Of a stretch of 64,000 nt of DNA, positions 9,557 to 58,395 are shown one piece after another. The position numbers and the translations under genes were made by a program. The first letter of the stretch is position 1; the number at the start of each line of letters is the position of its first letter. Under the pieces are notes generated by a model. That model had not been told where the DNA came from. It was given only the letters and a program-made list of their open reading frames with translations, and did no database searches. This DNA is from Patescibacteria group bacterium (GTDB lineage Bacteria; Patescibacteriota; Minisyncoccia; Phycocordibacterales; UBA9973): the NCBI GenBank assembly GCA_038061755.1, contig JBBTYN010000004.1, positions 3,198 to 67,197 on the forward strand. Direction: 5' to 3'.

Positions 9557-10270
9557 ATGTCTAAATTTTATGTGGTGGCGACACCGATAGGAAATATGGG
9601 AGACATTACACTCCGAGCTATCGAAACACTAAAAAGTGTGGATTTGATATTGTGTGAAGATACTCGAGAGACTAAGAAGATTTTAGATAAATATGGTATC
9701 AGTAAAATAACTATGAGTTATCCATCCGATGATGTAATCGGAAAAAACTACAGACAAAGTAAGCTTGCAAAGATTTTAAGATTACTAGAAGAAGGGAAAA
9801 ATTTAGCATTAGTTTCAGACGCTGGTACACCAGGGATTTCTGATCCGGGAGCTTTACTTGTTTCTCAAATCAAAGAGCATTTTAATCCAGCAAGGGGAGT
9901 CCTTGCTGGAAAAGTGCAAGTTATTCCAATTCCGGGTCCTTCAGCCGTTATCGCTGCGCTCTCGGCCTCAGGATTACCAATTCATGAATTCACTTTTCTA
10001 GGTTTTTTGCCACACAAAAAAGGTAGGGAAACATTATTTAAAGAAATTTCGCAAGCAAAAAGAACGATGGTATTTTATGAATCTCCGCATAGAATATTAA
10101 AAACGCTAGAATCTCTTATAAAATATACCCCAAATAAAAAAGTCTGTATTGCTCGAGAATTGACAAAAATTTATGAAGAATTTAAAACAGGTACACCTGT
10201 TGAAGTTTTGGAATATTTTCAAAAGAATAAAGAGAAGCAAAGAGGGGAGTTTGTTGTTATAGTTTCTTGA
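9557..10270 (+). CDS. rsmI: 16S rRNA (cytidine1402-2'-O)-methyltransferase; tetrapyrrole-methylase fold.
   Basis: N-terminus LYVVATPIGNMGDITLRAIETLKSVDLILCEDTRETKKIL is diagnostic of RsmI. Confidence 0.85.
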   Translation: MSKFYVVATPIGNMGDITLRAIETLKSVDLILCEDTRETKKILDKYGISKITMSYPSDDVIGKNYRQSKLAKILRLLEEGKNLALVSDAGTPGISDPGALLVSQIKEHFNPARGVLAGKVQVIPIPGPSAVIAALSASGLPIHEFTFLGFLPHKKGRETLFKEISQAKRTMVFYESPHRILKTLESLIKYTPNKKVCIARELTKIYEEFKTGTPVEVLEYFQKNKEKQRGEFVVIVS

Positions 10271-10273
10271 AAA

Positions 10274-10317
10274 GCCAAAGGGCATCTTTGACACACTTGT
10301 CAAAGATGCCCTTTGGC
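10274..10317. repeat. Nested palindromic element, copy 1, variant A: gccaaagggcatctttgaca-cact-tgtcaaagatgccctttggc. It lies between the convergent genes rsmI and priA.
   Basis: Perfect 20-bp arms. Sits between two converging genes. Confidence 0.9.
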
Positions 10318-10322
10318 AGGAT

Positions 10323-12275
10323 TTACAACAAATCTTCGGGATCTACAAATATTTCAAAAGATGATGGAAGAGAAAGAAGTTTAGCTAGAAGATTTTTATC
10401 TATAGAAGAATTAGTGGAAATTTCTGGAAGAGACCATTCTTGAGTATTTATTTTTATTAATGTGTTTGTTACATATTTATTTTTATTTTTAGTTATAAAT
10501 CCACTGAAGATTTCAGGATTGTATTCTTTAAAAAGTTCTTTTAATGTTTTTTTAGCTTCAATAGACTCTTCTTTATCACCAAAATAGGTAATTTTTATAA
10601 AACGTTTATATGGTGGATAGAATAATTTACGTCTATCTTCTAATTCTTCTCGCACAAAAGATAATAAATTTCCTGCTTTAATTGCAAGGATTGCTGGATC
10701 ATTCTCATTTTTTATTTGGATGATAAGTAATTCTTTTGTGTTATTAATTATTGAAAGTACAATTTGGATAATTTTTTCACTCATTTTAAAATTTGGTATG
10801 CTCCAAAGTGAATCAAAAGAAGCGATAATTGAAAGTGACACTTTGTTTTTTAAGTAGAAAAATGCCATTTCTGTACCTATTAATATTGACCCCTGATTAT
10901 CTTCAAATTCTTTTATGATTTTTTTGGCACCACTTTCTGTTTTTGCAGATTCTTTGTCTAATCTAAAAATTTTTGTTTTTGGAAATTTATTTTTAATTTC
11001 TTCGAAAACAGTTTCTGTTCCTATTCCAAGAGGCATTAAATTCCAACTTCCACAAGTTGCACAAGCAATGTCTCCGTCTATATTTATTTCACATCTATTA
11101 CATACGAACGCCCTTTTTTTATTTTGGTGTGACATATAAAGTACTAATGGTGCTCCACATTTTTCACAGCTCATTGTTTCATTGCAGTCTTTACAAAGAG
11201 TCATAGTTGCTAAACCTTTCCTTAATGAGAAAATAAAAATACTTTTTTTATTTTCTAATGTAGATTTTATTTCTTTTATACTTTCATCATTTAATATTTG
11301 GAATTTTTTATTACCTCTCCCCCCATCGCCTGGTAATTGGCGGGCAGGCTTACCTAAAACTTCTATTTTTCCATCAAAATCAATTCTAAAAGATAACGGA
11401 TATAAGGGATTTAAATTATCCATATCTTTTCTTCCAATTGTCTCGTAGCGTAATATTTCATCAGCTATAATAAATCTAGCATTTATTTTTGAAGCATAAA
11501 TCTCTACAAAAACTCTTAAATCAATATGTGTTTTCGTAATTATTTTATAAATATTAGAATTTTCGTGTTCTAAAATTATAGTGCCAATATTTTTTTTAGG
11601 AATAGACAAAAATGGCGGAGTGCTGATGATTAAGACTGGGTGAGTGGAATTTATTATTTTTTCATAAGTTATTAATTTTTTTTTTGCATTTATTCCACCA
11701 TGTATAGAAAAAGTAAATTTTTCAATTCCTTTTGATAATTGAAGAGTAAATTTTTCTATATCAAACTGAGTTGGTAAAACCAAAAAAATAGATTTATTTC
11801 TTGCAAAAGATTCTCGAACAAGTGTTTTGTATATAGATATGCGATCTTGTAATGGATATTGAAATAATAATTTTTCAGATTTTAGATTTTGTTGTTTTTC
11901 AAGCGAGGTAAAAGGTGGGGTAAGGTGCATTATCTTATCATATTTTTCTATAAAAATATTTGGAATTAATGAAGCAATGGCACTGTTTTTATTTTGGGCA
12001 AAATATTTACTTGTATCAAAAATTGTATCAAGAAATTCTTTTAAAAAAAAAGAACTTCCTTTGTCTTTTGTAACTTTTTTTAAGTTAAAATCCATATTTT
12101 TTACATTGCTTTTTTCCCCTTTTAGTTCTTCACTAGAAGTAACTAGCGCCAGGGTTTCCTTGTTTCTTATTGGAACAGATACAATATTTCCAACAGCTAT
12201 GTTCAAACTGGTAAAATAAGTTAAATCACCTTTCAATATACATTTTTTTAGTGGTATGACGGATATTATTTTCAT
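10323..12275 (-). CDS. priA: Primosomal protein N' (PriA)-like. The Cys-rich zinc region and C-terminal lobe are intact, but the Walker A and DEEH motifs are degenerate.
   Basis: Cys-rich region CKDCNETMSCEKCGAPL...CNRCEINIDGDIACATCGS and lobe-2 motifs are present. No GxGKT is seen, and the DEEH position reads IILEHENS. Confidence 0.7.
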   Translation of the reverse strand: MKIISVIPLKKCILKGDLTYFTSLNIAVGNIVSVPIRNKETLALVTSSEELKGEKSNVKNMDFNLKKVTKDKGSSFFLKEFLDTIFDTSKYFAQNKNSAIASLIPNIFIEKYDKIMHLTPPFTSLEKQQNLKSEKLLFQYPLQDRISIYKTLVRESFARNKSIFLVLPTQFDIEKFTLQLSKGIEKFTFSIHGGINAKKKLITYEKIINSTHPVLIISTPPFLSIPKKNIGTIILEHENSNIYKIITKTHIDLRVFVEIYASKINARFIIADEILRYETIGRKDMDNLNPLYPLSFRIDFDGKIEVLGKPARQLPGDGGRGNKKFQILNDESIKEIKSTLENKKSIFIFSLRKGLATMTLCKDCNETMSCEKCGAPLVLYMSHQNKKRAFVCNRCEINIDGDIACATCGSWNLMPLGIGTETVFEEIKNKFPKTKIFRLDKESAKTESGAKKIIKEFEDNQGSILIGTEMAFFYLKNKVSLSIIASFDSLWSIPNFKMSEKIIQIVLSIINNTKELLIIQIKNENDPAILAIKAGNLLSFVREELEDRRKLFYPPYKRFIKITYFGDKEESIEAKKTLKELFKEYNPEIFSGFITKNKNKYVTNTLIKINTQEWSLPEISTNSSIDKNLLAKLLSLPSSFEIFVDPEDLL

Positions 12276-13383: not shown

Positions 13384-14165
13384 TTTCAAAACATTTAGAT
13401 AAGAATAATTTACACCATGCGTACTTGATAGAAGGCGCACAAAGTAAAATTATTCCGGATATCATAAAATTTTTAAAAAGTTTAGGTATAAACACTGTTG
13501 GTAATCCTGATTTTGTTAATATCTCAATTGATAATTTTAAAATTGATGAGGCTTTTAGTTTACGTTCCATGTCATCAGATAAAGGATTTTCTTCTGCTCT
13601 ATCTGCGCAGGCAGGAAAAAAGATATTTATGATTTGCGTTAACAATGTATCTTTAGATGCTCAAAATGTATTGCTAAAAATGTTTGAAGAGCCAATAGAA
13701 AATACACACTTTTTTTTGATAGTACCAGACGTTAATGCTCTTCTAAAAACTTTAGTCTCTAGATTTTATTTTGTTTCAGCTAGGCAAGATCTAGCTGAAA
13801 CAGAAGAAACGAGAAAGGCAGAAAAATTTATTACTATGTCGTTAAAAAGCAGAATTGATTTCATTAAAGAATTATTAGTAGAAGAGGAAACAGAAGATGA
13901 AGATGGAAATGAAATAGTTGTTTTAAATTCCACTCGTTCTAAAGCTTTAAAGTTTTTAAATGCGCTAGAGTTTGTTTTGCATAAAAAAATCTTAGATGTG
14001 TCCTTTAATATAAGTTTCTTTGAACATTTTTTTAAAGTTCGTAAATATTTACGTATGCCAGGTTCGTCCGCTAAAAGTTTAATGGAGTCAGTGGCATTAA
14101 TTATACCAAATATGTTACAATATGGAGTACCATATAAAAATGGCATTCGGACATTAAACAAATAA
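13380..14165 (+). CDS. holB: DNA polymerase III delta' subunit.
   Basis: HAYLIEG, LLKMFEEP and TLVSR motifs of the clamp-loader delta' subunit. Confidence 0.75.
   Translation: MISKHLDKNNLHHAYLIEGAQSKIIPDIIKFLKSLGINTVGNPDFVNISIDNFKIDEAFSLRSMSSDKGFSSALSAQAGKKIFMICVNNVSLDAQNVLLKMFEEPIENTHFFLIVPDVNALLKTLVSRFYFVSARQDLAETEETRKAEKFITMSLKSRIDFIKELLVEEETEDEDGNEIVVLNSTRSKALKFLNALEFVLHKKILDVSFNISFFEHFFKVRKYLRMPGSSAKSLMESVALIIPNMLQYGVPYKNGIRTLNK
13773..13801. repeat. Inverted repeat gtttcagctag-gcaagat-ctagctgaaac (11-bp arms) inside the holB coding region.
   Basis: Seen directly. It shares the core AGCTAGGCAAGAyCTAGC with the palindrome at 28161..28208. Confidence 0.7.
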
Positions 14166-18248: not shown

Positions 18249-18313
18249 ATTTTCTCTGTTTTTCTGTTATACTAAAGACGGCCATTGGTCGTTTTTTTAT
18301 TTAGTTATTATAA

Positions 18314-18797: not shown

Positions 18798-19645
18798 AGT
18801 TTATTTATTGTAGCAGATTTTGATGCGTCAATCCACTTTATTTCTTTATCTCGTTTAAACCACGTCATTTGACGTTTGGCGTATTTAAGAGTTTCTGAAA
18901 TTACTTTTTCTGGCGTTGGATTATAATATTCAAAACCTAATTCTTTTAACCTTTTTTTCGAGACACCGGAACGTTTTAATTTTTTTATTTCATTAAGTAA
19001 ACCCATTTTGAACATTTTTTTTACTCTTTTTTCTACTTTTTTCTTTAATTTTTCTTCTGGTAAATATAATCCAATTTTTATAAATTTATACGGAGGAGTT
19101 TTTTCCGTAATTTTTGGGACTTTACCGAGAGCCTTTGCTATTTCAATCGCCCTAATTATCCTGACCTTATTATTTTGTTCATTTTTATTTTTTATATTTT
19201 TTGCTCGAGTCTTATCTAATTTAAATAATATATGAAATAATGCGGTCGCATCTTTTCGTAGCATCTCTTTGCGAAGTTTTATATCTGGCGGGACTTCTGG
19301 GAAAATTATTCCTTTAGTTATTGCATCAATATAAAATCCTGTGCCTCCGCAAATTATAGGAATATTACTGCGAGCTAATATTTCTTTTATTTTTTCTTCT
19401 GCAAGTTTTTTATATTCTGCAACTGTAAATCTATGCCTAGGATTTACCACATCAAGCAAGTGATGAGGTACACCCTTCATTTCTTTTTTGGTAATTTTAC
19501 CGGTGCCAATATCAAGACTTTTATATACTTGTCTAGAATCAGCAGAGATAATTTCCCCATTTATTTTTCGGGCGATTTTAACCGCTAAATTACTTTTACC
19601 AGTAGCGGTTTGACCTAGAATTATTATTACTTTTGGCTTTTGCAT
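18794..19645 (-). CDS. miaA: tRNA dimethylallyltransferase.
   Basis: P-loop GQTATGKS followed by ADSRQVYKSLDIGTGK. Confidence 0.9.
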   Translation of the reverse strand: MQKPKVIIILGQTATGKSNLAVKIARKINGEIISADSRQVYKSLDIGTGKITKKEMKGVPHHLLDVVNPRHRFTVAEYKKLAEEKIKEILARSNIPIICGGTGFYIDAITKGIIFPEVPPDIKLRKEMLRKDATALFHILFKLDKTRAKNIKNKNEQNNKVRIIRAIEIAKALGKVPKITEKTPPYKFIKIGLYLPEEKLKKKVEKRVKKMFKMGLLNEIKKLKRSGVSKKRLKELGFEYYNPTPEKVISETLKYAKRQMTWFKRDKEIKWIDASKSATINKL

Positions 19646-21127: not shown

Positions 21128-22138
21128 ATGTCAAATCTATATTCCAATTCAATTTTTTGGATTGATACTGATAAAATAAAACCAAATCCTTTTCAACCAA
21201 GACGAGATTTTGATGAAGCTCGTTTGCAAGACTTAGCTGATTCAATAAAACAATATGGAGTTCTTCAGCCACTTATAGTTTCTCGAGTAGAGGTAGAAAA
21301 AGATGGTGGCGGACTTGTAACTGAATATGAATTAATAGCTGGAGAGCGCAGGCTTCGAGCTGCTAAGATTGCAATGGTATCGCAAGTGCCAGCTGTAATT
21401 CGTGCAGGAGATACAGCTTTAATGAAACTTGAGCTTGCGATTATTGAAAATTTACAGCGCGAAGATTTAAACGTCATTGATAGGGCTCGAGCTTTTTTTC
21501 GCTTAGTTACTGAATTTAAATTTACCCACAATGAAGTAGCAAAAAAGATGGGCAGAAGCAGGGAATATGTTTCAAATACTTTGCGTATTTTAACCCTACC
21601 AGAAGAAATTTTAAATGGTTTATCCGAAGGAAAAATTTCCGAAGGACATACTAGGCCTATTTTGATGCTCGCAGACCATCCTCAAGAACAATTAGTTTTA
21701 TTTAAAGAAATTGTTTACAAAAAAATTACCGTACGTGAGGCAGAAAGATTAGCGAGAAAAATAGCTTATGATCGTGTACGCAAGAAAGAATTTATGCCAG
21801 ATCCAGAAATTACGGAACTGGAAGAAGAATTTCAAGAAAAATTAGGCACTCGTGTTCACATAGATAGAAAAGAATTAGGTGGACAAATTAAAATTGATTT
21901 TTTTTCTACCGAAGATTTGCGAACAATTTTAGATTTAATTCATAAAGGAGAAGTTGAAAAAAAACCTGAAGAAATGATGGATAATTATATTACAAATTCA
22001 GAGGTTAAATCTTTGGAGTTTGGACGTCCAGAATCCGAATTTTTAACATCAAAAGAAGCTCCAGTTGACGACAGATCCAAAGAAGAAGCAGAAAAAGACG
22101 AGACTGATTTATATAATATTTCTAATTTTAGCGTTTAA
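21128..22138 (+). CDS. parB: ParB/Spo0J chromosome-partitioning protein.
   Basis: ParB box GERRLRAAK plus an HTH, with an acidic C-terminal extension. Confidence 0.85.
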   Translation: MSNLYSNSIFWIDTDKIKPNPFQPRRDFDEARLQDLADSIKQYGVLQPLIVSRVEVEKDGGGLVTEYELIAGERRLRAAKIAMVSQVPAVIRAGDTALMKLELAIIENLQREDLNVIDRARAFFRLVTEFKFTHNEVAKKMGRSREYVSNTLRILTLPEEILNGLSEGKISEGHTRPILMLADHPQEQLVLFKEIVYKKITVREAERLARKIAYDRVRKKEFMPDPEITELEEEFQEKLGTRVHIDRKELGGQIKIDFFSTEDLRTILDLIHKGEVEKKPEEMMDNYITNSEVKSLEFGRPESEFLTSKEAPVDDRSKEEAEKDETDLYNISNFSV

Positions 22139-22154
22139 GTAAATTGCCAAAGAT

Positions 22155-22199
22155 GCCAAAGATGCCCTTTGACACTGAGTGTCAAAGGGCATCTTTGGC
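22155..22199. repeat. Nested palindromic element, copy 2, variant B: gccaaagatgccctttgacac-tga-gtgtcaaagggcatctttggc. It is preceded by a partial direct duplicate, gccaaagat. It lies between the convergent genes parB and rel.
   Basis: Perfect 21-bp arms. Confidence 0.9.
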
Positions 22200-22204
22200 A
22201 AACA

Positions 22205-23674
22205 TTAGCTACGACCAAAAGACATCAGCTTTGAGAGAAGACTATTTTTTTCTAAATATGATTTTATATGTTTTTTTGCAACAGAGGTTTTAACATACTC
22301 AAGCCATTTACTGGATGGCCTTGAATCTTTTTTTGTGATTATCTCAACTATATCTCCATTTTTTAATTTTGTAAAAATATGAGACATTTTACTGTTTATT
22401 TTAGCCCCAGAAATATGATTTCCAATATCTGTATGTATTGAATAAGCAAAATCTATTGGGCTTGAGTCTTCTGGTAAGTCTACAACATCTCCCTTTGGTG
22501 TAAAAATAAAGATACGATTATTAAAAAAATCCATTTTTAGGTGGTCGATAAAACTTTTCGGATCACCCGGAGAATAATTTAATTCTTTTAATTCCTCAAT
22601 CCATTTGAATTTATCTTTATCGTCCTTAGTTTTTTTTACGCCTTGTTCTTTGTAGGCGAAATGCGCAGCTATACCATAGGCTGCTTCAGTATGCATTTCT
22701 TTTGTCCTTATTTGTATTTCTGCAACACCTCCTAAACCAGTAAAAACAGTTGTGTGAATAGAGCGATAGCCATTTGGCTTTGGAATAGCAATAAAATCTT
22801 TTATTCTTCCAGGCAATGGATTCCAAATAGAATGTATTAATCCTAAAACTCGATAACAATCTTCGATACTGTCTACGACAACACGAAGTGCAACAACATC
22901 GTAAATTTTATCCAAATCCATACCATATTTTAATAATTTTTTATATAAACTATATTTATGTTTGATTCGATAATCAATTTCCACAACTTTTATATTATTT
23001 CTTAATAGTTCTTTTTTCAACACTTCACTGACTTCTGCAAGATTTTTTTCGTATGAATCTTTTTTTTCTTTAATTATTTCTTCTACTTGTGCATATTCTT
23101 TTGGGTAAGCATATGGAAAAGCAGCATTTTCCAAATCACCTTTTAATTTACCCATTCCTAGACGATCAGCTAAACGAGCGTGAATCTCAATTGTCTCCAA
23201 AGCTATACGTTTTTGTTTTTCTGGTTTTTTGTATTCCAGAGTTTGTGCATTATGTAATCTGTCGGCAAGCTTGATAATCACCACCCGAAGATCTCTTGCC
23301 ATCGCCAGGAAGAATTTTCGCAAACTTTCTACGTGGCGGTCGTCTCCTCGGTATTTTATATTACTTAATTTGGTAATTCCTTTTACCAAAAAAGCAATTT
23401 CTTCGCCGAATTCTTTTTTTATATCTTCTTCGGTTGTTTCTGTGTCTTCAACTGTGTCGTGCAAAAAACCGGCGGCAATCGTTTCCGCATCCATTTGAAG
23501 TTTGGTTAGATTCTTCGCAGTTTCAAAAGCATGTGTAAAGTATAGTTCTCCAGAATCACGTTTCTGTCCAGCGTGTGCATTTACAGCAAAATCATAAGCT
23601 TTTTTTAAAAGAACTTTTTCGCCTTCGGTAAATGGTTGCTTTTTTAGTTTATATAATTCCTCAATGTTATTCAT
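22205..23674 (-). CDS. rel: Bifunctional (p)ppGpp synthetase/hydrolase Rel, short form (HD, synthetase and TGS domains; no ACT domain).
   Basis: HD motif HDTVEDT, the synthetase domain, and a TGS region. Confidence 0.85.
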   Translation of the reverse strand: MNNIEELYKLKKQPFTEGEKVLLKKAYDFAVNAHAGQKRDSGELYFTHAFETAKNLTKLQMDAETIAAGFLHDTVEDTETTEEDIKKEFGEEIAFLVKGITKLSNIKYRGDDRHVESLRKFFLAMARDLRVVIIKLADRLHNAQTLEYKKPEKQKRIALETIEIHARLADRLGMGKLKGDLENAAFPYAYPKEYAQVEEIIKEKKDSYEKNLAEVSEVLKKELLRNNIKVVEIDYRIKHKYSLYKKLLKYGMDLDKIYDVVALRVVVDSIEDCYRVLGLIHSIWNPLPGRIKDFIAIPKPNGYRSIHTTVFTGLGGVAEIQIRTKEMHTEAAYGIAAHFAYKEQGVKKTKDDKDKFKWIEELKELNYSPGDPKSFIDHLKMDFFNNRIFIFTPKGDVVDLPEDSSPIDFAYSIHTDIGNHISGAKINSKMSHIFTKLKNGDIVEIITKKDSRPSSKWLEYVKTSVAKKHIKSYLEKNSLLSKLMSFGRS

Positions 23675-23732
23675 TCATTTGATTATACTACAAATATAGT
23701 TTTTGTGATCATAAAATTGTAGGACTATAAAT

Positions 23733-25946
23733 TTAAGCTTCTATTTTTGGTATTTTATGAGGATTGTGCATTTTGCAAGCTTTGTTTGAACAACGTTCCG
23801 GAATAGTTTTTGTGCCTTCCATCATTAAACTTCCACATTCTTTACATATATTGCCAGTGGGTTTTGCTTTAATTGCAAATTTGCAATCTGGATAATTTGA
23901 ACAAGAATAAAAAATTCCAAAGCGTCCGCGCCTCTCTGAAATGTCTCCTTTTTTGCAAATTGGACAAATAATTCCAGTACGTTTTTTTGCCTCTTCGGCT
24001 TCATCTTTTTTTATAAATTTACATTTAGGATAACGTGAACAAGAGATGAAGGTACCTGTACCGTCACGTCTTTCTTTTATAACCAATTTTCCCCCACCGG
24101 ATTTACCTTTCTTTTCGCCACACTCTGGACATATTTCACCAGTTTCTTCAGGGCCCTTTAGCTCTGTGCCATCGAGCATTAAAGCCCCTTCACAATCTGG
24201 GTATTTTGAACAGGAATAAAATTTTCCTCCCCGAGAAAGTTTGATAATCATAGAATTACCACATTTCGGGCATTTTATATTTTCTGGCGCATCACCTAAA
24301 TTTGTCGCTTTTTCTAATTTTTCTTTTAACTTTACATCTTTTGAAAAAGGTATATAAAAATCTTTTAATGTTTTTTCATATTCACGTTCGCCTCTAGATA
24401 TTTCATCTAATTCATCTTCCATTTCAGCAGTAAATGTATCAGAAATATAGTTAGCAAAATGTTTTTCAAGAAAATCTGATACTACTTCGCCGACATCGGT
24501 TGGAAATAGTGTTTTGCCTTCTTTTCTAACATACCCTCTGTCTTCGATTGTCCTCATTATAGATGCATAAGTCGAAGGTCTTCCAATACCTCTTGCTTCA
24601 AGTTCTTTAATTAGTCCTGCTTCAGAATATCTGCCAAGAGGTTCAGTAAATTTTTCTTCTCCATTTAATTCTATGAGTTTTAATTTTTCTCCTGGTGTGC
24701 AAAGTGGAAGTTCTAGATCTTCACCTCGTGCGCCAGTATCTACAGCTAACCAACCAGGAAAAAGTAAACGGGAACCAGTTGCTGTAAAATCGGGAATTTT
24801 TGCTTCCGCAATGTTCGCAGTTATTTTTGTTTTAAGTAATTTTGCATCAGCCATTTGGGACGATATAGCGCGTTCCCATATCAACCGATAAAGCTTGCTT
24901 TGATCATCTGTTCCGGCATGTAATTTTTCTATATGAGTCGGACGAATAGCTTCGTGAGCTTCTTGAGCATTTTTTGATTTTGTTTTATAAATGTGCATTT
25001 CCGCATATTTATCTCCATATTCCTTTTTTACAAATGATATGATTTGAGCTTGAGCGGTAGATGAAAGGTTAGTACTATCTGTTCGCACATAGGTGATGTG
25101 TCCAGCTTCGTAAAGTTTTTGAGCTATTTGCATTGTGCGTGAAGGGGAATATCCAAGTCGTGAAGATGCTGTTTGTTGTAATGTAGAAGTAGTAAAAGGT
25201 GCGCGAGGAGAGCGTTTTTGTTCAGATTCTTTTACACCATTTATAATCCAAGAACCTTTTTTACCCTCAGTCATTATTTTCTCAAATAATTTTTCGTCTC
25301 GTGGTTCTTCGGAGCAAGCTAGAGTAATTTTTTCTTTTTTTAGTGTTTCAAATAATCCTAATATTTTCCAAAATTTTTCAGGAAGAAAAGCGCGAATTTC
25401 ACGTTCACGCTCCATTATTATGCGAAGCGCAGGGGATTGGACACGTCCAGCAGAAAGTCCATATCTTACTTTTTTCCAAATAAGTCCGCTTAAATCGTAT
25501 CCTACCAATCTATCAAGTACTCGACGCGCTTCTTGAGCTTTGCGTAAATTTGTATCAATTTTTCGTGGATGTTTTAATGCTTCTTCTACTGCTTCTTTAG
25601 TAATTTCATGAAAGGCAACTCTTGAGATTGGAGCTTTAATCTTTTTGTCTTGATTAAGAAGCGTTTCTATGTGCCAAGCAATAGCTTCTCCTTCACGGTC
25701 GGGGTCTGTCGCTAAAAGTATTTCATTTGCTTTTTCCGCAAGTCCCTGAAGCTCATGCACAATTTTTTCTTTACCTTTTGAAATTTCATAATGCGGAATA
25801 AATCCTCCCTCAATATCTATCGCTTGTTTATTTGATTTTGGCAAATCACGAATATGTCCGACAGATGCACGCACAGTAAATGCGCCTTCAAGATATTTCT
25901 CAATAGTTTTCGCTTTTGATGGAGATTCAACAATTAATAATTTCAT
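23733..25946 (-). CDS. topA: DNA topoisomerase I.
   Basis: TOPRIM N-terminus (LLIVESPSKAKTI), an active-site Tyr region, and C-terminal Cx2C zinc ribbons. Confidence 0.95.
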   Translation of the reverse strand: MKLLIVESPSKAKTIEKYLEGAFTVRASVGHIRDLPKSNKQAIDIEGGFIPHYEISKGKEKIVHELQGLAEKANEILLATDPDREGEAIAWHIETLLNQDKKIKAPISRVAFHEITKEAVEEALKHPRKIDTNLRKAQEARRVLDRLVGYDLSGLIWKKVRYGLSAGRVQSPALRIIMEREREIRAFLPEKFWKILGLFETLKKEKITLACSEEPRDEKLFEKIMTEGKKGSWIINGVKESEQKRSPRAPFTTSTLQQTASSRLGYSPSRTMQIAQKLYEAGHITYVRTDSTNLSSTAQAQIISFVKKEYGDKYAEMHIYKTKSKNAQEAHEAIRPTHIEKLHAGTDDQSKLYRLIWERAISSQMADAKLLKTKITANIAEAKIPDFTATGSRLLFPGWLAVDTGARGEDLELPLCTPGEKLKLIELNGEEKFTEPLGRYSEAGLIKELEARGIGRPSTYASIMRTIEDRGYVRKEGKTLFPTDVGEVVSDFLEKHFANYISDTFTAEMEDELDEISRGEREYEKTLKDFYIPFSKDVKLKEKLEKATNLGDAPENIKCPKCGNSMIIKLSRGGKFYSCSKYPDCEGALMLDGTELKGPEETGEICPECGEKKGKSGGGKLVIKERRDGTGTFISCSRYPKCKFIKKDEAEEAKKRTGIICPICKKGDISERRGRFGIFYSCSNYPDCKFAIKAKPTGNICKECGSLMMEGTKTIPERCSNKACKMHNPHKIPKIEA

Positions 25947-26899: not shown

Positions 26900-28171
26900 A
26901 TGTTAGACATCAAATTTATTCGTGAAAATAAAGATATTGTGCAGGCGGGTGCGAAGAAAAAAAATATTGAGATAGATATTGATGCTTTGATTGTGCTTGA
27001 TGATAATCGCTTAAAAGAACTTAAAGAAGTAGAAGAACTTCGTAGTGAAGTAAATAGAGTTTCAAATGATATATCTCGCGATCAAGATCCAGCATCCAAA
27101 ATTCAACTAATTGAAGAAATGCGCGCAGTGAAAGAAGACATTAAAGCAAAAGAAGAAAAATTAAAAATAACCATAGAAGAATGGCAGAAAATTATGGTGC
27201 AAGTGCCTAATGTGCCAGATATGTCTGTACCAGATGGAAAAACAGATGTGGAAAACAAAGAAGTAAAAGTTTGGGGTGAAATTCCAAAATTTGATTTTAC
27301 TCCTAAAAATCATATTGAGCTTATGGAAAATTTAGGAATACTTGATATGGCTAGAGGTGTAAAAGTTGCTGGTTTTCGTGGATATTTTTTAAAGGGTGAT
27401 GGAGCTCTTCTTGAATTTGCTTTATGGCAGTTTGTGCAGGATTTCTTTTCTAAAAAAGGAGGCTTTATTCCGATGATTGTTCCTTCTCTTTTGAAACGAG
27501 AAGTATTTTTAGGTACTGGTTATCTTCCGCAAGGTGAAGAAGATTTATACAAAACGCAAGATGGCGAGTATTTATCAGGTACAGCAGAAGTTGCAATGAT
27601 GGGGCACTATATGGGTGAAATTTTAGAAAAAAAAGATCTGCCAATAAAAATGCTTGGATTTTCTTCTGCTTTTCGTCGTGAGGCGGGAAGTCATGGTAAA
27701 GATACAAAAGGTATTCTTAGAGTTCATGAATTTTTTAAATTTGAACAAGTTGTACTTTGTGAAGCACAACATACAGAATCAGTAAAATTTCATGAAGAAA
27801 TACAACGTAATACTGAAGAAATTATGGAGGCATTAGGATTGCCTTATCATGTGGTAATAAACTGTGCTGGAGATCTTGGTTTGGGTCAAGTTAAAAAATA
27901 TGACATTGAAGCTTATTTGCCATCTGAAAATACCTATCGGGAAACTGGTTCTGCTAGTTATTTTCATGATTTTCAAACAAGACGATTAAATATCCGTTAT
28001 CGTGATGAAAATGGTAAATTAAAATTTGTTCACTCTTTAAATAATACTGCTCTTTCTGGTAGACCACTCATTATGATAGTAGAAAACTACCAACAAGCAG
28101 ACGGATCTATAAAAATTCCAGAAGTTTTACGCAAATACATGGGAGGTAAGGAATTTATAAAAAATAGCTAG
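26900..28171 (+). CDS. serS: Seryl-tRNA synthetase.
   Basis: N-terminal coiled coil MLDIKFIREN and class II motifs. ATG 26900 preferred as the start. Confidence 0.9.
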   Translation: MLDIKFIRENKDIVQAGAKKKNIEIDIDALIVLDDNRLKELKEVEELRSEVNRVSNDISRDQDPASKIQLIEEMRAVKEDIKAKEEKLKITIEEWQKIMVQVPNVPDMSVPDGKTDVENKEVKVWGEIPKFDFTPKNHIELMENLGILDMARGVKVAGFRGYFLKGDGALLEFALWQFVQDFFSKKGGFIPMIVPSLLKREVFLGTGYLPQGEEDLYKTQDGEYLSGTAEVAMMGHYMGEILEKKDLPIKMLGFSSAFRREAGSHGKDTKGILRVHEFFKFEQVVLCEAQHTESVKFHEEIQRNTEEIMEALGLPYHVVINCAGDLGLGQVKKYDIEAYLPSENTYRETGSASYFHDFQTRRLNIRYRDENGKLKFVHSLNNTALSGRPLIMIVENYQQADGSIKIPEVLRKYMGGKEFIKNS

Positions 28172-28208
28172 GCAAGACCTAGCATGCTAGGTCTTGCCTA
28201 GCTATTTT
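28161..28208. repeat. Perfect 48-bp palindrome aaaatagctaggcaagacctagcatgctaggtcttgcctagctatttt. It overlaps the serS stop codon.
   Basis: Seen directly. Likely a terminator or attenuator hairpin between serS and the downstream gene. Confidence 0.85.
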
Positions 28209-29101: not shown

Positions 29102-30137
29102 AAAAAATTTCTGGAAAAATCTTGAAAAACCATTTTTTTGTTTAGCGCCAATGTCGGACGTTACCGATATTGCTTTCCGCTCCATATTGATGAAATATAG
29201 CAAGGATAGAGAAAATAAAAACAGTGTTGTTTTTTGGACAGAATTTGTTGCAGCTGATGGTTTGTGCAATAAACTTGCTAGAAAAAAACTAGCGCATATA
29301 TTAAAATTTAAAGAGAGCGAAAGACCAATTGTAGCTCAAGTTTTTGGTGCTAATCCTGATAATATGAAGTATGCTTGCCAATATATTGCTAGCCTTGGTT
29401 TTGATGGGATAGATATAAATATGGGTTGTCCAGATAAATCTGTGGTAAGCCAAGGAGCAGGTTCTGGTTTGATTAAAAATCCATTACTTGCCAGAAAAAT
29501 TATACAGGCGGCACACGCTGGGATAGATTCTGCTGGTCTACATATCCCAGTATCTATTAAAACAAGAATTGGTTTTAATAAAGAAGAAATTGATATTTGG
29601 ATAGGGGAATTGTTAAAAGAGGATATTTCTGCTTTAACAATTCATTTGCGTACCACTAAGGAATTATCACTTGCACCGGCACATTGGGATTTAATGAAAA
29701 GAATTATTGAATTACGAAATAAAATAAGCCCAGAGACTTTAATAATTGGCAATGGAGATGTAAAAGATTTAAAAGATGGGGAGGAAAAAGCTCTAAAGTA
29801 TGGTTGTGATGGAGTTATGATCGGTCGTGGAGTTTTTGGTAATCCTTGGTTTTTTAAAAGCCAAAGGGCACCTTTGACACACTTGTCAAAGGTGCCCTTT
29901 GGCAATGAGGAATCAAATGTTAAAGAAAAATTAAAAATTTTAGTAGAGCACACACAGATTTTCGAAAAGGAACTTTCAGGACCTAAACATAAAAGTTTTG
30001 CCGTTATGAAAAAGCATTTTAAAGCGTATGTGAATGGTTTTGAAGATGCAAAAGAGCTTCGAGTAAAATTAATGGAAACAGAAAATGCTAAAGAAGTTGA
30101 GAAGATAGTTAATGATTTTTTAACTCGCCTACATTAA
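29058..30137 (+). CDS. dus: tRNA-dihydrouridine synthase. It carries an in-frame copy of the palindromic element at 29860..29903.
   Basis: FFCLAPMSDVTD, VAQVFG, INMGCP and GVMIGRG motifs of Dus. The start may instead be ATG 29085. Confidence 0.85.
   Translation: MICDSKIKFMTNSNKKNFWKNLEKPFFCLAPMSDVTDIAFRSILMKYSKDRENKNSVVFWTEFVAADGLCNKLARKKLAHILKFKESERPIVAQVFGANPDNMKYACQYIASLGFDGIDINMGCPDKSVVSQGAGSGLIKNPLLARKIIQAAHAGIDSAGLHIPVSIKTRIGFNKEEIDIWIGELLKEDISALTIHLRTTKELSLAPAHWDLMKRIIELRNKISPETLIIGNGDVKDLKDGEEKALKYGCDGVMIGRGVFGNPWFFKSQRAPLTHLSKVPFGNEESNVKEKLKILVEHTQIFEKELSGPKHKSFAVMKKHFKAYVNGFEDAKELRVKLMETENAKEVEKIVNDFLTRLH
29860..29903. repeat. Nested palindromic element, copy 3, variant A. It lies inside the dus ORF and is translated as QRAPLTHLSKVPFG.
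   Basis: Perfect palindrome with the ORF left open. Relative to copy 1 it has the compensatory change t/a to c/g. Confidence 0.9.
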
Positions 30138-31497: not shown

Positions 31498-31534
31498 GTA
31501 TAGCAAGGTATAGCAAGAACGGTTCTTGCTATAC
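31498..31534. repeat. Perfect 27-bp palindrome gtatagcaagaac-g-gttcttgctatac, preceded by a direct duplicate of its first 10 nt.
   Basis: Seen directly. It has the same AGCAAGAAC half-site as the repeat at 1798..1846. Confidence 0.85.
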
Positions 31535-31542
31535 CAAATAAT

Positions 31543-46377: not shown

Positions 46378-47925
46378 ATGATAAAAGAAAATAAAAAAAT
46401 AAAATCAGCTTTAATTTCAGTTTTTAATAAAGATGGACTTGAAGAAATTGTAAAACTTCTTCATAGGCATAATGTAAAAATTATTTCTACTGGTGGTACG
46501 GCAGAATTTATTCGCAAACTTAGTGTACCAGTAACTGAAGTAGAAGAAATCACAAATTATCCTGCCTTATTTGGTGGTAGAGTTAAAACACTGCAACCAC
46601 AAATTTTTGGCGGGATTTTAAATCGCCGAGATAATGTAAATGATATAAAAGAAAAAGTGGAGCACAAAATAGAAGACATTGATTTGGTAATCGTAGACCT
46701 ATATCCATTTGAAGAAACTCTAGCTAGTGGAGCTAATGAGGAAGAAATTATTGAAAAAATAGACATCGGCGGAGTATCTTTAATTCGCGCAGCGGCGAAA
46801 AATTTTAATGATGTCGTAGTGATTCCTTCAAAACATCAATATGAAGAATTAAAAAATATTTTAAAAATAAGTGACACTACGACATTAGAACAACGCAAAA
46901 AATTTGCAGGCAATGCATTTGAAGTGACAAGTATTTACGATAGTGCTATTCGTGGGTATTTTCAACCTTTGCCAAAGATGCCCTTTGACATATTGATGTC
47001 AAAGGGCATCTTTGGCAATATCCCGCTGCGCTATGGAGAAAACCCACACCAAAGAGCAAAATTTATAGGTAATTTAGAAGAGAGTTTTATACAACTTCAT
47101 GGAAAAGAGCTTTCTTATAATAATTTGATGGATACTGAAGCTGCCATTATGACCGTTTATGATTTTAGAGATCCTGCTTTCGCTATTGTTAAACATATGA
47201 ATACTTGCGGTCTGGCTGTTAGGGAAGAAGGACATTTATTTGAGGCGTATCAAGCAGCTTATAATGCCGACCCACTTTCAGCTTTTGGTGGAGTATTAAC
47301 AGCTAATAGAATTATTGAGGAAGACATCGCTAAACTTATCAAGGAACAAAAACTTTTTATAGAAGTAATTATTGCGCCAGATTTTTCAAAAGAAGCTTTA
47401 AATATTTTAATGGAGAAAAAGGATTGTAGAATTTTGAGGTGGAAAAAACCAAACCTTCCGCTAAAACAAAACAAGACTTGCTTTACTGGAATTCTGTCGC
47501 AAGATCGAGATACTCATATAGAAAGTGAGACAGATTTAAAAGTGACAACTAAGCGTGAACCAACAGAGCAAGAGAAAAAGGATTTACTCATTGCTGCAGT
47601 AATAACGAAACATTTAAAATCTAATGCTATCGCTTTAGTAAAAGATGGAACACTTCTTTCAATGGGTTGTGGACAAACTTCACGCATTGATGCATTAAAA
47701 CAAGCTATTGATAAAGCCAAAAAATTTAAATTTTCACTCAAGGGTGCTGTTATGTCATCTGAAGCATTTTTCCCATTTCCTGATTGCGTAGAGATGGCAG
47801 GGGAAGAAGGTATAACTGCTGTACTTCATCCTGGAGGTTCAAAGAATGATCAAACATCCATAGATATGGCAAATAAATACAAAATGGCAATGGTAACAAC
47901 TGGCTTTAGACATTTTAAGCATTGA
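46378..47925 (+). CDS. purH: Bifunctional AICAR transformylase / IMP cyclohydrolase. It carries an in-frame copy of the palindromic element at 46971..47016.
   Basis: MGS-like N-terminal domain and an AICARFT domain (LRYGENPHQ). Confidence 0.9.
   Translation: MIKENKKIKSALISVFNKDGLEEIVKLLHRHNVKIISTGGTAEFIRKLSVPVTEVEEITNYPALFGGRVKTLQPQIFGGILNRRDNVNDIKEKVEHKIEDIDLVIVDLYPFEETLASGANEEEIIEKIDIGGVSLIRAAAKNFNDVVVIPSKHQYEELKNILKISDTTTLEQRKKFAGNAFEVTSIYDSAIRGYFQPLPKMPFDILMSKGIFGNIPLRYGENPHQRAKFIGNLEESFIQLHGKELSYNNLMDTEAAIMTVYDFRDPAFAIVKHMNTCGLAVREEGHLFEAYQAAYNADPLSAFGGVLTANRIIEEDIAKLIKEQKLFIEVIIAPDFSKEALNILMEKKDCRILRWKKPNLPLKQNKTCFTGILSQDRDTHIESETDLKVTTKREPTEQEKKDLLIAAVITKHLKSNAIALVKDGTLLSMGCGQTSRIDALKQAIDKAKKFKFSLKGAVMSSEAFFPFPDCVEMAGEEGITAVLHPGGSKNDQTSIDMANKYKMAMVTTGFRHFKH
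46971..47016. repeat. Nested palindromic element, copy 4, variant B. It lies inside the purH ORF at the inter-domain linker and is translated as LPKMPFDILMSKGIFG.
   Basis: gccaaagatgccctttgacat-attg-atgtcaaagggcatctttggc with 21-bp perfect arms. The ORF is left open. Confidence 0.9.
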
Positions 47926-56844: not shown

Positions 56845-57225
56845 ATGGAAAAAATCAAGTCATTTATAGAGAGTGAGAAAGGGAAAGATATTTTGATAGT
56901 TCTCATTGTTATTTTGGTTGGTTTAGGATCATTTGAGCTAGGTAGGCTATCAAAAGAAAATGACTCGGGAAGCATAAAAATAGAATATCCGAATCAAGAT
57001 TTCAACCAAGAAGCCAGCACTATTTCAGCTATAAGTAATGTGCCAAAGACAGTCTTTGATACAAATTCATTTAGAAAAACTTTTTTCGCTTCAAGCAAGG
57101 GAACTAAATATTATACAATAAGCTGTTCTGCCGGTAAAACTATCAAACAAGAAAACAGAGTTTATTTTACAACAGGGGAGGAGGCGCAAGCGGCCGGGTA
57201 TACTCTTTCTAGCTCGTGTCAATAA
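56845..57225 (+). CDS. Membrane-anchored protein with a C-terminal Ada-like metal-binding domain.
   Basis: N-terminal TM helix. The C-terminus YYTISCSAGKTIKQENRVYFTTGEEAQAAGYTLSSSCQ resembles the Ada_Zn_binding pattern (YC...C...F.s..eA.aaGyrpC). Confidence 0.45.
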   Translation: MEKIKSFIESEKGKDILIVLIVILVGLGSFELGRLSKENDSGSIKIEYPNQDFNQEASTISAISNVPKTVFDTNSFRKTFFASSKGTKYYTISCSAGKTIKQENRVYFTTGEEAQAAGYTLSSSCQ

Positions 57226-57254: not shown

Positions 57255-58232
57255 TTATTTATTATCAAATTCCTTTCCTCCATGAAATTTTTCATGTATA
57301 TCTCTTAGTCCCTTATTTGTTACGTGAGTATAAATCTGTGTTGTGGCCACATTTTTATGACCTAAAAGCTCCTGCACGCTTCGTAAATCAGCTCCATGAC
57401 TCAAAAGATCAGTAGCATAACTATGGCGAAGTGTGTGAGGTGTTACTTTTTTTGAAATTCCTGCAAGCATTGCACATCTTGAAATCATCTTCTGTATTGA
57501 ACGGGGAGTAAGTCTATGATCATCATCTATATCTTTTCCGTGATAATTTATAAATAAAGGCTTCTGAATATCTGTTCTAGATGCTAGATAGATCCGAAGC
57601 CATAAAGCCGCACGAGGGGAAATAAAAATGGTTCGTATATGTTTTCCTTTTCCAACAATAGAAAGCTCAAAGGTGCGCTTCGGATTTTTATCTTTTAAAA
57701 ATGACATCTGGTCTACATTGATTGCTACCAATTCCGAAATACGCATACCGGATGAAAAAAACAGTTCCATAATTGTACGATCCCGAAGGCCAATAGAGGT
57801 TTTTATGTCAGGAATCTTTAACATCTCTTCAATGTCGCGGACTTCTAGAAAAGAAATAGTTTCGTCGGTTTTTTGCTTGGCTAATTTCACCTTAGAGGAA
57901 GATATTGTCTCTATGTCGCGGTCAGCGAGAAAGTCAAGAAGCGCACGTACTGCAATCAAGTAATAATTTTGAGATTTTTTACCTAAATATTCACCAGAAC
58001 GGGTTTTATAACTTCGAGCTAAATATAATCGATAATCCCAAATATGGTTTGCTGTTAAATCATGCGGGAGTAAATCTTCATTATTAGTTTTCTTTAGCCA
58101 ATCAATAAATAGTTTTAGATACTGTTTATAATTACGTTGTGTATTGCTAGATAATCCTTTTTCAATCTCACAGTAATCAAGAAAGGGAAGGATGTATTTG
58201 ACTATTGGTTGAATCGTTTTCTTTGTCTCCAT
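57255..58232 (-). CDS. xerC: Tyrosine recombinase XerC/XerD-like.
   Basis: R...HxxR...Y catalytic region (HTLRHSYATDLL...LGHKNVATTQIYTHV). I prefer ATG 58232 over the upstream GTG 58256. Confidence 0.8.
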   Translation of the reverse strand: METKKTIQPIVKYILPFLDYCEIEKGLSSNTQRNYKQYLKLFIDWLKKTNNEDLLPHDLTANHIWDYRLYLARSYKTRSGEYLGKKSQNYYLIAVRALLDFLADRDIETISSSKVKLAKQKTDETISFLEVRDIEEMLKIPDIKTSIGLRDRTIMELFFSSGMRISELVAINVDQMSFLKDKNPKRTFELSIVGKGKHIRTIFISPRAALWLRIYLASRTDIQKPLFINYHGKDIDDDHRLTPRSIQKMISRCAMLAGISKKVTPHTLRHSYATDLLSHGADLRSVQELLGHKNVATTQIYTHVTNKGLRDIHEKFHGGKEFDNK

Positions 58233-58261
58233 ATGATATAGTATAGTAGTTCGCACAATAT

Positions 58262-58291
58262 ATGTAAAGCGAATAACTATTCGCTTTACAT
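58262..58291. promoter_or_regulatory. Perfect 30-bp palindrome atgtaaagcgaata-ac-tattcgctttacat immediately upstream of xer; candidate operator or dif-like site.
   Basis: Seen directly. A second, imperfect hairpin lies at 58295..58331. Confidence 0.5.
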
Positions 58292-58395
58292 AACGCAGAT
58301 TTTACGACACCGAAGGTTCGTAATAATCTGCTCAAAGCGAACTTATCCACATATATAAATATATTCTATATATTAACAAGTCCCTTCCCAGATTA

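Follow-up and report, generated by a model that had tools for sequence, protein, structure and literature searches.

Four copies of a short palindromic element occur in the DNA analysed here (the window, a 64,000-nucleotide stretch of a contig from a Patescibacteria group bacterium), and two of them, copies A and B, lie between convergent genes. These two copies are most probably REPIN-type palindromic repeats that were inserted between convergent stop codons and survive there at permissive sites, and not canonical terminators. The coordinates of the elements and of the flanking genes are listed in Table 1.

Table 1. Coordinates of the element copies, the neighbouring genes and a comparator palindrome in the window.
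Feature	Coordinates	Strand	Description	Location
rsmI	9557..10270	+	RsmI (TIGR00096); C-terminus ...GEFVVIVS-stop, as in relatives	
Copy A	10274..10317		44-bp perfect palindrome, 20-nt arms, loop CACT	rsmI/priA convergent junction
Copy A units	10274-10293 and 10298-10317		inverted doublet of two 20-21-nt units	
priA	10323..12275	-	PriA; C-terminus ...VDPEDLL-stop, as in relatives	
parB	21128..22138	+	ParB; C-terminus DLYNISNFSV-stop, conserved in relatives	
Tandem partial duplication	22146..22154		gccaaagat, repeats nt 1-9 of copy B	in front of copy B
Copy B	22155..22199		45-bp perfect palindrome, 22 + 1 + 22 nt, central G	parB/rel convergent junction
rel	22205..23674	-	RelA/SpoT, 489 aa, clade-typical length; C-terminus SFGRS-stop, conserved	
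Comparator palindrome, not of the family	28161..28208		48-bp perfect, A4 tract upstream, T4 downstream; terminator-like on both strands	
Copy C	29860..29903	+	encodes SQRAPLTHLSKVPFG	in frame inside dusB
Copy D	46969..47018	+	encodes LPKMPFDILMSKGIFG; arms 23 nt	in frame inside purH

Two copies between convergent genes

The original prediction placed both intergenic copies of the element between convergent gene pairs, and the coordinates of both are confirmed to the base. Direct reading shows that copy A, GCCAAAGGGCATCTTTGACA-CACT-TGTCAAAGATGCCCTTTGGC, starts 4 nt past the last base of the rsmI stop and ends 6 nt short of the priA stop, which leaves 3 bases to the former (TGA, 10268-10270) and 5 to the latter (TTA, 10323-10325). 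Copy B, GCCAAAGATGCCCTTTGACACT-G-AGTGTCAAAGGGCATCTTTGGC, was also read directly. It lies between the stops of parB (TAA, 22136-22138) and rel (22205-22207, TTA on the plus strand), has the predicted gccaaagat partial duplication in front, and has arms of 23 nt if the flanking T/A at 22154 and 22200 is counted. The order of its units is opposite to that of copy A, with the ATGCC core first. Zero matches to the 45-mer of copy B were found in shuffled versions of the window.

It had also been predicted that such a perfect palindrome would fold into the same long hairpin when transcribed from either strand. RNA folding in contexts of 86-96 nt agrees, with energies from -38.7 to -46.9 kcal/mol: -39.9 and -38.7 kcal/mol for the two strands of copy A (z about -8) and -40.9 and -46.9 kcal/mol for those of copy B (z = -8.2 and -10.0). 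The stems of 20-22 bp stand 3-5 nt from the stop codons at copy A and 5-16 nt at copy B.

The identities of the four flanking genes were confirmed by NCBIfam. The last residues of RsmI, PriA, ParB and Rel are the same whether the element is present or absent, and therefore no gene is truncated. Truncation by the element had been considered for rsmI (237 aa against a 275-position profile) and for rel (489 aa against 687) and was rejected in both cases because close relatives share the length and the C-terminus; close Rel homologues all have about 489 residues.

A recombination breakpoint at copy B was also considered for strain L002 from well H52, in which ParB is identical and Rel 85% identical to the window proteins, and was rejected, since the diverged patch is at 22828-23827. 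Outside this 1-kb patch (36-87% identity), which consists of the 5' half of rel and the rel-topA spacer and looks like a recombination tract, the strain is about 100% identical to the window. Smaller diverged patches are found at 19028-19227 and 21628-21827, and there is one SNP in the gccaaagat duplication.

Insertion into very short spacers

The junctions of related genomes show what these sites look like when they are empty. The window reads TGA-aaa-(44 nt)-aggat-TTA at rsmI/priA. The same junction in L171 (RsmI 75% and PriA 60% identical to those of the window) is TAA-t-TTA, with 1 base between the stops, and in L129 (RsmI 83% identical, 42% GC) it is filled and reads TAA-ggagt-(44 nt)-atgaga-TTA. 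Within the compared set, the RsmI of the window is closest to that of L129 and vice versa, and therefore one ancestral insertion at rsmI/priA is the simplest reading. The order parB/rel is conserved in four relatives (L186-L189) and the element is present in none of them; the two stops overlap by 4 nt in L186, L188 and L189 and are 10 nt apart in L187. These element-free orthologous junctions with spacers of about zero show that copies A and B are lineage-specific insertions.

Target-site duplications were not seen at the flanks AAA/AGGAT (copy A), GGAGT/ATGAGA (L129) or GTAAATT/AAACA (copy B), in a comparison for which the empty sites are only orthologues at 71-79% identity. Because chance insertion would rarely meet two spacers of only about 1-10 nt, there may be a preference for insertion sites close to stop codons, or positive selection for a hairpin there.

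The rsmI/priA copies of the window and L129 have arms that are identical at 40 of 40 positions, and their loops and flanks are unrelated. For comparison, these two genomes share 53% identity at third codon positions over the neighbouring 150 nt of rsmI and priA. Set against these third positions, the identity of the arms shows a constraint on, or homogenisation of, the element at the sequence level. The same arm sequence is kept at coding sites in other genomes.

On the reverse strand of L133 (7200-7422), rsmI is followed by a 42-nt spacer and then by a relic of the priA 3' end (TTACAACAAATCTTCTGGGTCTAC), and the intact priA is at another place on this contig. A decayed element may make up the spacer (..ATCTTTATTTGTTCAAAGCTTGACTTTAAAC..).

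The element is a doublet of a smaller unit

The element is an inverted doublet of a 21-nt unit, TGTCAAAG-N5-CTTTGACA, with the outer ends GCCAAAG in this genome, and every arm is itself a small palindrome made of CAAAG, a 5-nt core and CTTTG. Only copies A and B are intergenic; copies C and D lie in frame within genes. In copy C alone, the core has one compensated change (GGCAC/GTGCC). The element occurs in two forms, GGCAT-first (A and C) and ATGCC-first (B and D), and these are head-to-head and tail-to-tail arrangements of two inverted units, not strand flips. Two of the three reading frames of the unit are open on both strands (QRxxLT and SKxxFD) and the third contains TGA.

Neither of the 10-kb flanks of the window holds a further copy, and the count over about 84 kb (the window plus both flanks) is about 8 units, in 4 doublets. 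A lone degenerate unit with a different core, GCCAAAGACAGTCTTTGATA, is located at 57042-57061 inside a small Ada-Zn-binding-like ORF (56845-57225). A search of Rfam at gathering thresholds found only three tRNAs in the window and no family matching the element. Each unit includes TTGACA, and a promoter reading was rejected, as there is no -10 box at the right spacing in the sequence.

A scan of metagenomes for the doublet with any core gave 58 loci, and viral contigs gave zero matches to the family pattern. A looser scan of GTDB genomes used CAAAG-N5-CTTTG twice as the pattern, which is too general; the doublet architecture is also present in several CPR lineages among the matches listed. Palindromes of Thiomargarita, Caldilinea and Prevotella from this looser scan belong to unrelated families and were set aside. 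The looser pattern also caught an abundant unrelated palindromic repeat, GGAGTCCAAAGCGAAGCTTTG...CAAAGCTTCGCTTTGGACTCC (L004-L123, e.g., L008, L009, L019 and L068), in MAGs labelled Thiomargarita, Marithrix, Parabeggiatoa and Caldilinea. Proteins identical to those of the window are encoded on contigs from 0.1-µm filtered Hainich groundwater, and the closest homologues of the window proteins are annotated as Nomurabacteria, Paceibacterota or Patescibacteria.

Among 39 unique elements, 34 have exactly complementary cores, of 16 types, and five (L124, L131, L133, L148 and L157) have cores in the same orientation or different cores. All 8 variable stem pairs change on both sides, 96.8% of the stem cells are paired and only 2 cells are G-U. 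Such strict Watson-Crick symmetry, together with the mixed-core elements, is what an inverted doublet of independent units, formed at the level of DNA, predicts.

Copies inside genes

The intragenic position of copies C and D is common in the family. When genes in the fetched loci were called with a crude home-made ORF caller, 45 of 69 family copies were in frame in ORFs; 12 were at tandem, 6 at convergent and 3 at divergent junctions, and 3 were at contig edges. Several intragenic copies recur at the same position, for example in a TypA-like GTPase (about 14 loci), DusB (7), a HolB-like protein (5), MnmA (4), RsmI (2) and PurH (2). The PurH site that is occupied by copy D in the window holds an element with an AGACA core in L163.

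The DusB site was compared in the 120 closest homologues. The loop that follows GNPWFF has 18-21 residues in its base state. It carries the peptide of the element family in about 14 of the 120, and in other proteins it takes at least four unrelated types of insert. As the loop holds several insert types, it is therefore a permissive site that has been hit repeatedly by several palindromic families. The other inserts at this site (29850-29910 in the window) include SPPTPLLxKERGAExGERS, SLRPSP..DPREQKIER, KRxDLxxSKRxxL and LEYFEDxRFxPEAG, which resemble peptides translated from palindromic repeats of other families.

A probable link to a RAYT transposase

The arrangement that defines REP/REPIN-RAYT systems is a single-copy Y1 transposase flanked by a repeat that is dispersed as hairpin-forming doublets (PMC3116915, PMC3337134, PMC5581495). 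Judged from related sequences, the window elements are REPIN-like doublets that appear to be linked to a transposase of the RAYT type. A RAYT gene is absent from the window and its 10-kb flanks, and therefore the link rests on related genomes.

The clearest case is L169, where an ORF of 212-236 residues is flanked on both sides by full doublets of the exact GGCAT type found in the window. This ORF matches Pfam Y1_Tnp with 46.6 bits (cut-off 23), and its best NCBIfam match is REP_Tyr_transpos (68.6 bits, E = 5e-19, below the curated 80-bit cut-off). It has an HUH-like motif, NHFHLLL, and a tyrosine motif, AYIHMNPV. More than 7000 homologues were found at E ≤ 1e-10; the best 120 of them are 64-74% identical, come from Nomurabacteria/Paceibacterota and bear the JGI name 'REP element-mobilizing transposase RayT'.

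The locus is also conserved. The gene order methyltransferase, RAYT, 0-1 gene and gyrA is found in five contigs from different samples, and the RAYT gene of L169 adjoins gyrA as well. The RAYT gene of L192/193 has single units, TGTCAAAGAGACACTTTGACA, 10 nt before its start and over its stop codon, and their AGACA core is that of dispersed elements in L103, L126, L144, L156, L161, L163 and L165. In L194 the gene has TGTCAAGG-ATGCC-CCTTGACA upstream and the inverse downstream, and in L195/196 a related unit is present upstream only. A tblastn search of all fetched DNA found RAYT homologues 32 and 43 nt from the genome's own doublet in the Saccharibacteria L066 and L116, and about 700 nt from a doublet in the Parcubacteria L058.

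By analogy with the REP-RAYT systems that have been studied, the transposase likely copies the doublets through single-stranded hairpin DNA. Copies A and B are lineage-specific insertions into the near-zero space between two convergent stop codons. They probably persist at the junctions for the same reason as their in-frame sister copies persist in protein loops, presumably because a genome that is about 95% coding offers few sites that tolerate an extra 45 bp. A transcribed copy would place a 20-22 bp hairpin close behind both stop codons, and this hairpin, like E. coli REPs, probably protects 3' ends and at most hinders read-through weakly and depending on context.

Other palindromes in the window

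The window has 14 distinct perfect palindromes with stems of at least 12 bp, far above chance. A second group of perfect palindromes consists of 28161-28208, 13772-13802, 1812-1846 and 31507-31535, which share the motifs CTAGGCAAGA(C/T)CTAG or TAGCAAG(A/G)AC. The arms of the first are also nested mini-palindromes (CTAGG-CAAGA-CCTAG), and the second lies inside a HolB-like ORF. The palindrome at 31498-31535, GGTATAGCAAGAAC-G-GTTCTTGCTATACC, is unrelated to the element family and has tRNA-Gln on one side and a convergent gene on the other. A tandem partial duplication, GTATAGCAAG, repeats its first 10 nt directly in front of it. The one-sided duplications before copy B and before this palindrome suggest a shared mechanism of slippage or insertion at palindromes. 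Finally, a perfect palindrome with a 15-bp stem, TATGTAAAGCGAATA-AC-TATTCGCTTTACATA, is found at 58261-58292, just upstream of a tyrosine-recombinase (Phage_integrase) gene (57255-58256), and another assembly (L182, 15599-15630) has the two bases at its centre inverted.

Terminators, recognition sites or repeats

Copies A and B are probably not canonical intrinsic terminators. A terminator scan called neither copy on either strand, and it did call a canonical hairpin with a T-run at 18274-18296 and at 28163-28206 in the same window, the latter within the comparator palindrome of Table 1. A U-tract does not follow the stem on each strand; the tails of the two copies are AGGAUUUA, UUUUCAAG, AAACAUUA and AUCUUUGG. 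On the priA strand, UUUUC comes after copy A, and the other three of the four strand-sides are without a U-tract. In the family as a whole, one of 18 tails has at least 5 T in 8 nt, the other 17 being without a U-tract, and T makes up 38% of the 8-nt tails.

The element is present at 2 of 8 convergent and 0 of 54 other junctions in the window (Fisher p = 0.015), and 5 of 16 unique intergenic family loci are convergent, against a window background of 8 of 62 (p = 0.046). When the two window copies are left out, 3 of 14 intergenic loci are convergent, which is not significant (p = 0.27). The four other convergent protein-gene pairs in the window, with spacers of 19, 29, -4 and -17 nt, have no hairpin. 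Family copies at tandem junctions are nearer to the upstream stop than to the next start in 9 of 10 cases (p = 0.011).

These results bear on the original suggestion that the elements were co-opted as bidirectional terminators; on that reading, the hairpin would have been selected for stopping antisense run-on between convergent genes. The part of it that stands is the strong symmetric hairpin on both strands just behind both stops, and several other observations agree with it: the rsmI/priA copy has been kept in two genomes that differ at about half of their synonymous sites, the tandem-junction copies hug the upstream stop and, as noted above, UUUUC follows copy A on one strand. There are also precedents in the REPs of E. 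coli (bioRxiv 10.64898/2026.03.23.713779) and in the paired uptake signals of Neisseria, which were co-opted as terminators with long stems and few Ts (PMC1852404). However, the missing U-tracts, the negative scan and the loss of convergent enrichment outside the window all argue against it, as do the relatives, whose orthologous junctions have overlapping or abutting stops and lack a hairpin, and the other convergent pairs of the window, which have none either. Equally perfect hairpins are found in frame inside dusB and purH, and the arms are conserved in sequence, a property shared with the coding copies, whereas a terminator needs structure only. We therefore consider selection as a terminator to be unlikely. 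A more modest effect as a terminator or 3'-end stabiliser, of the kind known for E. coli REPs, is plausible, and by the same analogy the hairpins likely influence mRNA 3' ends in the manner of REPs, as a side effect. About 60% of E. coli REPs lie between convergent genes and about 40% of those are in mapped bidirectional terminators; they cause measurable, partly Rho-dependent attenuation and protect mRNA, and REP325 is both a partial terminator and an mRNA stabiliser (bioRxiv 10.64898/2026.03.23.713779).

A related possibility is that CPR bacteria of the Nomurabacteria type carry a vertically inherited RAYT gene beside gyrA together with REPINs that, in contrast to all those described, reside mostly in frame within housekeeping genes and in zero-length gaps separating convergent stops, and that the junction copies were exapted as the sole hairpin insulators or 3'-end protectors of convergent genes, in genomes with no other terminators at such sites. 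This would explain why all 40 arm bases were kept at rsmI/priA while neighbouring synonymous sites are half-saturated; we regard it as doubtful. It is much less probable that the element serves at the DNA level as a recognition site of another kind, not read by a transposase, for example an uptake signal, a site for a nucleoid or segregation protein or a recombination site, with the hairpin being incidental. The sequence conservation of the arms across genomes of 33-44% GC, at coding and non-coding sites, would fit such a role, and so would the presence of dprA and other competence-related genes in the window (DNA_processg_A is beside topA) and the pairing of Neisseria and Pasteurellaceae uptake signals into terminator-like hairpins (PMC1852404). 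Uptake signals, though, are 9-11 nt long, number about 1000 or more per genome and are mostly single, against the roughly 8 units in 84 kb found here, nearly all of them in doublets; moreover, the elements were inserted and did not evolve in situ as motifs. With RAYT genes flanked by the units, the transposase is indicated as their reader. We also take the element sequence to be unlike the parS, NBS or dif consensus sites. An artefact of assembly or sequencing, or a chance palindrome, has a negligible probability, since several independent Hainich assemblies show an identical locus, a diverged strain has it too, the coding copies are in frame, shuffled sequence gives zero matches and the family is found in ENA, JGI, Logan and NCBI data from different sites. 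RAYT-linked repeats that were inserted and tolerated are the reading that we prefer.

Comparison with known systems

Among the papers searched, there was no description of REPIN-RAYT systems or of in-frame palindromic repeats in CPR/Patescibacteria. REPIN-RAYT systems have so far been studied in large proteobacterial genomes. The streamlined CPR genomes, about 95% coding, offer a minimal setting for asking what REPINs cost or bring to their hosts. The palindromes add 14-17 residues to conserved proteins (DusB, PurH, TypA, MnmA, HolB and RsmI) and probably break assemblies, so that they are relevant to the annotation and phylogenomics of CPR bacteria.

Placement between convergent genes is a known habit of REP elements and, on its own, is unsurprising. 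The E. coli REP/BIME elements are likewise biased to convergent and tandem junctions, are almost absent from divergent ones and form hairpins without a classical U-tract (bioRxiv 10.64898/2026.03.23.713779). However, the E. coli hairpins are imperfect and never lie inside genes, and their role as partial terminators and mRNA stabilisers was measured, whereas the role considered here is proposed by analogy only. Canonical bidirectional intrinsic terminators share a symmetric hairpin between or behind genes, but they have a pair of A- and T-tracts that is absent from the element and present at 28161-28208 (PMC1852404). MITEs combine terminal inverted repeats with a target-site duplication, and no such duplication is evident at the element.

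We know of no RAYT partner of the Rickettsia palindromic elements. Those elements resemble the present ones in their in-frame insertion into unrelated housekeeping genes of a reduced genome, with a peptide that is tolerated, and differ in size (about 100-150 bp against 44-47 bp here) and lineage (PMC10969869, PMC1779305).

The closest likeness is to REPIN-RAYT systems. In both, a short palindromic unit is present in many dispersed copies per genome, two inverted units make one long hairpin, and the same units flank a Y1 (IS200-like) transposase at a conserved locus, here in related genomes. Both also lack a visible target-site duplication and have intergenic copies at the 3' ends of genes. The elements described here differ in that their spacer is very short (1-5 nt), which gives a near-perfect palindrome of 44-47 bp, and in that a conserved 5' tetranucleotide (e.g., GTAG) was not seen. 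By definition REPs lie outside genes, whereas two of the four window copies and 45 of the 69 family copies lie in frame in ORFs, and the host is an ultra-small CPR genome of the Nomurabacteria/Paceibacterota type.
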